DNA of 64,000 nucleotides. Origin: Saccostrea echinata (Eukaryota). The DNA is taken from the NCBI RefSeq assembly GCF_033153115.1, contig NW_026889753.1, forward strand, positions 11,656,001 through 11,720,000, given 5' to 3'. Shown piece after piece: positions 4,489 through 7,011 of this stretch (position 1 is its first letter; the number at the start of each line of letters is the position of its first letter). A model generated the notes under the pieces. The model was not told where the DNA came from and searched no databases. It worked only from the letters and a program-made list of their open reading frames with translations. Both the position numbers and the translations under genes were made by a program.

Positions 4489-6236
4489 ATACATGTAAAC
4501 AAAAGCAAACAAGAATGAAAAAACATATTATTGCCCTCTACATCATTTTAAGTGATTACTGTAATTATTTTACAATTTTTTTTACATTTTATTCTTTTAC
4601 TAAACCATATTTTTATTGTACCTATTTAATAACATTCAGGCACGAATCTTTACTAATGAACAATTTTGCAGAAGCCTATAACTGCTTTGAATACTCTAAT
4701 TGTATAGCAATTTGCATATAACTTAAAAATATTTGAAAAGCATTTGAAAAGCATGAAATCAAGGCATGGGTATGGACTGAACATTACTCTGGCATTGAGA
4801 AATCAGTTCTTGTTTGATTATGATTTTCTAGCGAGAGTTGATGTTTATATTTAGTAAAAAAAAAATCCTGATAGTAATTATTGTTTTTCATTCCTTAATT
4901 AAATTCAAATTAAACCAAATGATCAAATTAATTTTAGACAAGCAGACATTCAGACAATGTTTGATTTGTTTTTGCAAAGGAGTAGCAGTGACCTGAAGTT
5001 TGGCACCTTTTGACCAGGTGGTACGAACAACTCTCTATAGACATGCAATCCATAGATTACAGTCAGACTATATAGCCCAAATCTTGTTTAGTGGTCAAAT
5101 ACAATCATTCACTCAAGGCCAGATAGCTCTTTTTACAGTCCCCATCCCCATTTTCCTTCACGATTGGAATCCAGGTCTGGTCTATTAATTGACCTTTACG
5201 CATATTTGGTACCGTCACAGCTACTGCTACAGGCCTGTATCCACTCCAAATTTATTTAAAAAGTTTTCTATTAACAAACAAACAAACAAAACAAAAACAA
5301 GTTCAACTTGTACAAGCAGTGTGTTTTGACGGATCCATGTTTTGGTCAAACAGGTGCGAGCGTCACAAAAGTTCACAAAAAAAAAAACAACTTACCTTTA
5401 TAAAGTTATGTTCTATACTATATTCAGTGAGGAGTTTTAAGTCATTCCAAAAACAATATTGAAATAATTATTCTTTTATGATTATCCATAACGAACCAGT
5501 GTACATGTGCTCTATGGTACGAACTTGACAACTGTAAAGCTTTGTCACGTGACAAGGTTGACGGGTATGGGAACGCATCTGGGTTTACCTTCAGTTTTCA
5601 ATGTAAAGGGTGGGAAATATTGAAATCTCCTACGCATGCTTTAAACTAATTAAAACTACTTCTCTTTAAATACAGCGTAGCTGAAATAATTTTCAATGGT
5701 AACATAAATCCACCAGTGGAAGTGGTTAAACTGAATTATAATATCAGAAATCGATGTTCTGGACCTGGTTTAACTTCAGCAGTTCAGGTGTCGATAGAGG
5801 TCCTGTCCAGATGCAGGCACATGGCCGTAGGAACTGGGGGGGGGGAGGGCGTGCCCCCAATAATTTTGCCGATATATAGAATACTATAGAAAACATAGCT
5901 ACTATGTGCTTGTGCCCCCTCAATATTAACGTCTGGTGACCCATTTTTTTTTAGCTTGTCAAGGAATTTTGGTACTGAGTTGATAGTGCCCCTCCCCCCC
6001 CCCCCCCCCCAACCATCATGAAATGTATGGTTGTGCCCCCTTAAAGTGAAACTGCCTCCTACGGGCCTGAGACATACTGGGGTAATACAGTCGGATTAAA
6101 AGATATATTAATGTCTGTGATTAAAATTAAGGAATAACTGTCTAGTTTTTTTTTTTTTTTTTTTTTAATTTTGAAGTTATCTGTTTGTGTGGTAGTGTAA
6201 GATACATGGCATCCTACTAGCTTGGGCTAGTGGGTT

Positions 6237-6309
6237 AACCCTTTAGCTCAATTGGTAGAGCACTGGACTGGCAAGCCAGAGGCCCCGGGTTCAATCCCCA
6301 GCAGAGGCA
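6237..6309 (+). pseudogene. tRNA-derived sequence in the 5' LTR (anticodon position GGC, broken acceptor stem)
   Basis: A box TAGCTCAATTGG, anticodon arm CTGGA-CTGGCAA-GCCAG, B box GGTTCAATCCC. Confidence 0.75.
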
Positions 6310-6502
6310 CATACATGTCTCTGTTACATTTGGAGCCCAACATGGGGCCCGGGTGTTCTCTGGCGGGTGAAAGTGATTGCCCCCAGAACTTTGCCCCACA
6401 GGCATTGGCACTCCAAAAGAGATGAGGACATCTCATTCTCTGGAGGGGGACAATGTGGTAGTGTAAGATACATGGCATCCTACTAGCTTGGGCTAGTGGG
6501 TT

Positions 6503-6575
6503 AACCCTTTAGCTCAATTGGTAGAGCACTGGACTGGCAAGCCAGAGGCCCCGGGTTCAATCCCCAGCAGAGGCA
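6503..6575 (+). pseudogene. tRNA-derived sequence in the 3' LTR (identical copy)
   Basis: Same sequence shifted by 266 bp. Confidence 0.75.
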
Positions 6576-7011
6576 CATACATGTCTCTGTTACATTTGCT
6601 CGCGTGATAATTTGCATAACGCTGTTTATGCAAAAAAATTATCACGCGAGCAAAATGATTGATCATCATCACAAAAAAGACAGTTTTTCCTTACATATAT
6701 ATTTTTTACCTGGTCCTTTATTCAATTAAAAAAAATATTCAATAAAAAGAATTTTCTGCAAGCCCCGCCCCGCCAAGCAACATACAGCTAGACTTTTTGG
6801 GGGAAAAATATTATAACATCATAAAATGTAGAAAAAAGGAAATTAAAAGGGGGGGGGGGGAGAAAAAGGATATTGCATGACTCAAGTATACTGTATGTTC
6901 GGACTACTTGTTTTGCTTACTCTATATTCGCGAATTACCTTTAGTGATGAAATTCAAAAGGGTACACAGGGATGGGGGCACAGCAAAATCTTAGGAAAAC
7001 ATCACAACCTC

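Follow-up and report, generated by a model that had tools for sequence, protein, structure and literature searches.

The window analysed here (64,000 nucleotides of Saccostrea echinata DNA; NCBI RefSeq assembly GCF_033153115.1, contig NW_026889753.1, positions 11,656,001 to 11,720,000) contains a 407-bp element with two LTRs and a non-coding interior, and it raises the question of how an element of this kind is transcribed, primed, and moved. On the evidence below, the element is probably a copy of the oyster TRIM Helenus-3_SaGl that inserted recently. RNA polymerase III (Pol III) likely transcribes it from A and B boxes in its LTRs, and particles of several Gypsy families primed by tRNA-Lys likely mobilise it.

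Structure and Target Site of the Element

The element reads on the plus strand from a 141-bp 5' LTR with TG..CA ends (6188..6328) through a 125-bp non-coding interior (6329..6453) to a 3' LTR (6454..6594) identical to the first, and TTTG stands on either side (6184..6187 and 6595..6598). Its total of 407 bp, both LTRs included, is below 1000 bp, and an ORF check over the element found no ATG-started frame of more than 76 codons. The primer-binding site (PBS; 6331..6348) and the polypurine tract (PPT; 6442..6453) stand at the two ends of the interior, as is characteristic of Helenus elements, and the start of the LTR had no match in 100 shuffles that served as a chance control. When compared with host tRNA 3' ends, the PBS showed two mismatches to tRNA-Lys(CUU) and five to tRNA-Lys(UUU), which makes it a CUU-type site with two substitutions. 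An initial annotation, made from the letters alone, had already named the identical LTRs, the non-coding interior, the PPT, the TTTG target-site duplication (TSD), and a PBS two mismatches from a tRNA-Lys site, and each of these was recovered. It had also called the element intact, which is not fully accurate given the two substitutions in the PBS. The LTRs are identical yet the PBS is changed, a mismatch left unexplained by the model developed below. A tRNA-derived SINE, considered as the class of the element, is ruled out by the two LTRs, the PBS, the PPT, and the fixed 4-bp TSD.

The insertion was said to lie in one arm of a palindromic MITE, and it does occupy the left arm of a MITE-like palindromic repeat (6128..6693, approximate ends, without assigned strand). 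This host repeat is abundant in the genome (40 scored of 921 first-look candidates). In all 11 other copies inspected, which provide the empty sites that the initial annotation had suggested comparing, the left arm continues directly into TTTG, and skipping the insert in the window joins the left arm to TTTG in the same way. The TTTG duplication is considered real because of these 11 uninterrupted copies; the same four letters also follow the 5' LTR by coincidence. Among the eight RNA runs examined, no contig or read bridged the insertion junctions or showed the empty site.

Family Identity and Copies in the Genome

The sizes of the window element are identical to those of Helenus-3_SaGl from Saccostrea glomerata (Kojima 2024, PMC10886601, supplement), with an LTR of 141 bp, an interior of 125 bp, a total of 407 bp, and a TSD of 4 bp. 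Counted by eye and not by program, the two differ at 9 of 141 LTR positions and 12 of 125 interior positions (approximately 94% and 90% identity), and five short probes matched the supplement, four of them within Helenus-3_SaGl itself. Because the Helenus features tested are present and Helenus-3_SaGl is matched, the window element is, on size and sequence, a copy of a TRIM that is already known, with Helenus-1_CGi and Helenus-2_CVi as relatives (PMC10886601). The published entry removes the novelty that had been expected of the element; the proposal that it is a mobile TRIM of Helenus type, with an A/B-box module derived from a tRNA and a 4-bp TSD, is supported.

The 923-Mb genome yielded at least 42 family matches (40 of the 423 candidates were scored), a 23-nt core of the LTR has 78 exact matches, and the genome holds dozens of copies. 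A copy-number search had been suggested to tell a mobile family from a single-copy locus, and many copies, TSD-flanked, were found. An exact 4-bp TSD flanks 13 of 28 distinct insertions, compared with 14 of 756 cross-paired flanks, and the remaining 15 have no exact TSD. A 5-bp TSD was found in none of 30 copies, and among 23 single-LTR loci there are 7 solo LTRs flanked by a 4-bp TSD. Three loci have unusual structures. One is a tandem Helenus with three LTRs and a single 4-bp TSD around the whole array (L155:2056-2727). Another is a hybrid whose 5' LTR begins as Helenus-3 and continues as a sequence like Helenus-2_SaGl (named by eye), with the crossover near the B box (L137:3914-4300). The third (L140; C22:640900-648900) is a complex locus in which LTRs of another Helenus family occur with a Helenus-3 interior of CUU PBS type and with a decayed Gypsy pol in inverted orientation.

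The tRNA-Like Body and Its Predicted Role in Transcription

Each LTR contains a tRNA-like body, at 6237..6309 in the 5' LTR and 6503-6575 in the 3' LTR. In the former, Pol III A and B boxes are predicted at 6244..6255 and 6288..6298 from the motifs given in PMC10886601. The Rfam tRNA model scored 39.9 bits for 6237-6309 (gathering threshold 29) over model positions 8-63 only. In register, pairs form at 3 of 7 positions in the acceptor stem, 4 of 4 in the D stem, 4 of 5 in the anticodon stem, and 4 of 5 in the T stem, with GGC (6270-6272) as the anticodon. These results agree with the initial description of a body with A and B boxes, a GGC anticodon, and a broken acceptor stem in each LTR. The accompanying warning, that the LTRs would be mistaken for two tRNA genes, applies at the Rfam threshold but not to ARAGORN, which called no tRNA over the whole window. 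The Rfam score and the largely paired D, anticodon, and T stems could be taken as signs of a working tRNA gene with a GGC anticodon in the LTRs. We regard this as extremely improbable: the acceptor stem does not reach 7 bp and the cloverleaf is incomplete, ARAGORN returned nothing, and folding of the body is no stronger than that of shuffled sequences (z 0.22). Since GGC also stands in the published Helenus-3_SaGl consensus and a different triplet occupies the position in the related Helenus-2_CVi (read by eye), the anticodon is, by this comparison, without meaning. The body would be a promoter and not a tRNA, and Helenus-3 LTRs should be masked in tRNA annotation.

Both boxes match the consensus. 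Across 60 LTRs they have 1.4-1.5 minor letters per column, compared with 2.3-3.3 in the flanks. Variation is equally low in the sequence that separates them, and conservation of the boxes is too weak to judge promoter function. Neither a T4 run nor AATAAA occurs anywhere in the window element; absence of T4 from 407 bp is compatible with chance. In the proposed first step, RNA would start near the 5' end of the tRNA-like body (approximately 6237) and would read through the 3' LTR, because no T4 run lies inside the element.

Of 24 RNA runs listed, eight were examined, and six of these are contig sets that are unable to show transcript starts. The two raw oligo-dT runs, from a related organism, contain 168 and 115 reads, which lie on both strands and lack a shared start; about half run on into unrelated sequence. 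Such reads, present in oligo-dT libraries and extending beyond the element, would be expected if the A and B boxes were a relic and the RNA arose from Pol II read-through or from a Pol II promoter in the LTR. The composite insertions described below, at 2.2-4.8 kb, are likewise long for Pol III products, although their Gypsy part could derive from a second RNA. The fit of the boxes to the consensus and their slightly lower variation relative to the flanks speak against a relic, though less so with the inter-box stretch as low, as does an element without T4 and without AATAAA. We view a Pol II origin as improbable, and transcription by Pol III is the reading carried forward. One contig, whose RNA origin is only guessed, spans 6236-6520 and differs from the window copy solely at the two substituted PBS letters, where it has the perfect CUU form. 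It is suggestive of a parent lineage and was not used as evidence.

Composite Insertions with Gypsy Elements

At three loci, a composite insertion is bounded by Helenus LTRs on both sides and by a single 4-bp TSD, and encloses a piece of Gypsy. In all three, the Gypsy part starts at its own PBS, immediately behind the Helenus LTR. Chimera A (L041:506-3457, TSD CATG, outer LTRs differing at 1 of 140 positions) contains the leader, a truncated gag, and 43 bp of LTR from Gypsy-A, with 97-98% identity to four Gypsy-A copies; two of its junctions have 8 and 9 bases in common. The four Gypsy-A copies are 99.4-99.7% alike, with an open PNMA-like gag and an open pol (PR-RT-RH-IN, 1451 codons), and one of them has no TSD. 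Chimera B (L104:1187-3406, TSD AGAG, outer LTRs differing at 3 of 141) contains four pieces with 92-98% identity to the UUU-type Gypsy-B, together with an inverted Helenus part. Chimera C (L103:1728-6529, TSD ATTT, outer LTRs differing at 0 of 141) contains gag and 5' pol sequence (3.9 kb) together with LTR sequence (approximately 520 bp) from the CUU-type Gypsy-C, in pieces 95-99% identical to three Gypsy-C copies with open frames. One of its junctions has 11 unassigned bases and no stretch in common, and several chimera junctions are placed only approximately. The donor pol proteins are only 49-51% identical to each other, so Gypsy-A, -B, and -C, all of PR-RT-RH-IN type, represent separate families. 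Their likeness to Helenus is restricted to the LTR ends, the PBS, and the PPT region.

Nested insertion predicts Gypsy LTRs outside the Helenus sequence and a TSD around it, and neither was seen at the three chimeras. This favours template switching by reverse transcriptase between co-packaged RNAs, which we infer to be the best explanation of structures read from the genome assembly. The chimeras point to particles in common and to several helpers, and they lend sequence support to the Gypsy-type partner proposed in the initial annotation. A chimera identifies an RNA that took part but does not tell which element supplied the enzymes. Three families emerge from the chimeras as candidate helpers, and some copies of each have open gag and pol frames. 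In the proposed mechanism, Helenus RNA would enter Gypsy particles, where either tRNA-Lys could prime because the first nine bases are common to both PBS forms; Gypsy integrase would insert the element by way of the LTR ends in common, with a 4-bp TSD, and chimeras would arise by template switching between co-packaged RNAs.

Gypsy-A has the LTR start most like that of Helenus (the first six bases and a further 7-base run are identical) and a similar PPT, and in an older, reciprocal product (L113) a Helenus interior is attached to a Gypsy-A-type LTR. Gypsy-A could accordingly be a single dedicated helper, with the chimeras of other families being rare accidents or the result of nested insertion and deletion at the DNA level. 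Several observations argue against this. The PBS of Gypsy-A is a 13-nt CUU site, whereas most Helenus copies are of UUU type. Chimeras B and C each have outer Helenus LTRs that are almost identical, a single TSD, and a Gypsy part initiated at the PBS, a combination that nesting does not produce, and two further loci (L138 and L163) join other foreign LTR ends to a Helenus interior. We judge a Gypsy-A-only system to be improbable as well, and use of several helpers remains the preferred explanation. No report of Helenus/Gypsy chimeras or of helper identification for Helenus was found in the literature searched, whose coverage is incomplete for subscription journals and Repbase.

The genome contains many young Lys-primed Gypsy families on many contigs, with near-identical LTRs and pol frames of more than 1400 codons (L105-L130 and L173-L180), and most of the copies examined among them have a perfect tRNA-Lys(UUU) PBS. 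At two loci from other LTR families (L105:2419 and L118:1813), an LTR end and a PBS abut another LTR end in inverted orientation, and from this arrangement the loci are read as snap-back palindromes around a quasi-palindromic Lys PBS. Two related copies of a non-coding Gypsy-B derivative of approximately 4.4 kb have a CUU PBS (L177 and L179).

Two Forms of the Primer-Binding Site

The 3' ends of host tRNA-Lys(CUU) and tRNA-Lys(UUU) have 17 and 9 matches in the genome, respectively, and at the loci scanned ARAGORN called Lys-CTT in four of four and Lys-TTT in four of six. The two corresponding PBS forms have the first nine bases in common and differ at four positions. Among 30 Helenus copies, 21 are nearer to UUU (16 of them perfect, 18/18) and nine are nearer to CUU (two perfect, 18/18). 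The majority PBS equals that published for Helenus-3_SaGl and matches host tRNA-Lys(UUU) at 18 of 18 positions. In PMC10886601 this PBS is aligned, with a gap, to Aplysia tRNA-Lys-CTT; given the gapped alignment and the 18/18 match in the host, the published assignment needs correcting to tRNA-Lys(UUU). By this match, tRNA-Lys(UUU) is the main primer of the family. The window copy is one of the CUU-type minority. The idea that the majority PBS is an imperfect Lys-CUU site maintained to escape silencing was abandoned once the perfectly matching tRNA-Lys(UUU) family was found. One or two substitutions occur in 7 of 9 CUU-type sites compared with 5 of 21 UUU-type sites, an excess that the model does not explain.

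A pattern anchored on the Helenus interior, with all 16 letter combinations allowed at the variable positions, gave 23 UUU and 5 CUU exact matches in the genome and no mosaic among these 28. A separate exact search for CUU also gave five matches, comprising two plain two-LTR copies, one copy behind a foreign LTR end, one chimera, and one member of another family; the interior-anchored counts were used because of this mixture. In a PBS-masked tree of 35 rows (three of 38 dropped, one a fragment and two duplicates), the CUU label needs seven changes (AU p=0.009). In a tree of 29 plain elements (nine of 38 dropped, chimera parts and truncated copies included), it needs six, against a shuffled mean of 6.4 (AU p=0.0004). 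The CUU form is thus scattered over the Helenus tree as reconstructed, a weakly resolved tree in which two starred branches force only two changes. The autonomous Gypsy-B shows the same two forms, with seven UUU and four CUU copies that need three changes (AU p=3.5e-6; two UUU rows identical) and no mosaic among 15 exact matches.

In retroviruses, the plus strand copies the 3' end of the primer (PMC7472051, available portion). By contrast, the PBS of yeast Ty1 and Ty3 is reported to be inherited from the element itself and not from the primer (PMC7472051 and PMC5371799, both as available in part). The distribution of the two forms suggests that the primer tRNA is copied into DNA here, as in retroviruses and unlike yeast Ty3. 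The plus strand would copy the 3' end of the primer, so that, after priming by the other isoacceptor, some of the progeny would carry an entirely rewritten PBS. We lean, with only modest confidence, toward a generalist Helenus-3 that uses the particles of any Lys-primed Gypsy without LTR homology beyond the ends, and toward primer copying in this Gypsy clade, through which the PBS of helper and parasite alike flips between UUU and CUU in single rounds.

The scatter of PBS types in Helenus could also come from recombination between copies. In a rival account, the same helpers would be used and the PBS inherited as in Ty1 and Ty3, with the two forms shuffled by template switching of co-packaged RNAs, either between Helenus RNAs or between Helenus and a Gypsy of 18-nt CUU type. 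Template switching is frequent in this system and reaches the PBS too, as the one hybrid site at the inner junction of chimera C indicates; Gypsy-C has a native 18-nt CUU site, and the parts of the yeast studies cited above provide a precedent for inheritance. However, plain CUU copies keep the 2-base spacer and the interior of Helenus. Because they are Helenus on both sides of the PBS, shuffling needs two switches within approximately 20 bases each time. Two copies (L011 and L027) have interior variants in common that start two bases behind the PBS, yet their PBS types differ. The lack of mosaics in Helenus and Gypsy-B alike, and the 18/18 match of most UUU sites to the host tRNA, also weigh against shuffling, which we consider unlikely; primer copying is retained as the favoured account. 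No report of PBS flips in Helenus or Gypsy was found in the literature searched, in which subscription journals and Repbase are incompletely covered.

The scanned tRNA loci include a tandem array, with 14 Lys matches, whose 1.22-kb unit holds tRNA-Met, -Thr, and -Lys(CTT) (L034; C54:40.11-40.13 Mb) and a repeated cluster of Ala-TGC, Lys-TTT, Arg-CCT, and SeC-TCA (L035, L036, and L038; C2:25.16-25.21 Mb). The latter gives several tRNA-SeC calls in one genome and includes two 5'-truncated Lys-TTT copies.

Relation to Known Elements

The evidence on chimeras, helpers, and primers in the sister copies is apparently new; the element type adds nothing new. These copies bear on two points left open in PMC10886601, namely the dependence of TRIMs on an autonomous partner and the change of primer tRNA. 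That paper names Helenus partners by PBS likeness alone, except for one fungal Copia case, and a term search of its main text gave no match for chimer, template switch, or polymorph. If Helenus-3 is a generalist that copies its primer, this would provide a mechanism for both primer change and helper change in TRIMs, each open in Kojima 2024.

Cassandra and Ajax, the 5S-rRNA TRIMs ("TRIMp3"), are likewise short non-coding LTR elements with a Pol III module derived from a small RNA in the LTR. Their module is of 5S type and not of tRNA type, and no helper is indicated for Cassandra (PMC10886601). Mouse ETn/MusD (Cullen and Schorn 2020, PMC7472051, from the portion available) offers a close parallel, being also non-autonomous, with PBS variants scattered over the tree, switching between Lys-UUU and Lys-CUU, and primer copying proposed. 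ETn/MusD belongs to Retroviridae, in contrast to the Gypsy elements and probably Gypsy-dependent TRIM described here, and the same portion states that Ty1 and Ty3/gypsy inherit the PBS strictly. For an animal Gypsy clade, the flips of the PBS suggest that primer sequence is inherited in the manner of retroviruses.

The biv-TRIM (Satovic et al. 2019) is also a bivalve TRIM, likened here by description; the available part of that report (PMC6934838) gives it no canonical PBS and no partner. The chimeras suggest that Helenus-3 has no single partner, and this may be the reason that partner searches by LTR homology, such as those in the same part, fail. Template-switch hybrids among plant TRIM families are already in print (PMC13570524, as far as that text is available). 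Chimeras and PBS flips can be screened for in any good oyster assembly.

Other Features of the Window

Just left of the host palindrome, a second small repeat-like element has inverted repeats with G/C runs (5814-6070). A further MITE-like palindrome with 86-nt arms of 97% identity lies at 7008-7179 and attracts spurious Rfam miRNA matches. The Rfam miRNA matches near the element were rejected, as they derive from AT-rich palindromes. Coding features on the plus strand comprise a B-box protein exon (10168-11883), an RT fragment (45064-45717), and a BTB-BACK exon (50377-51723). On the minus strand are a 533-codon frame with no Pfam match (23578-25179) and an ALG11-like exon (39410-40393).
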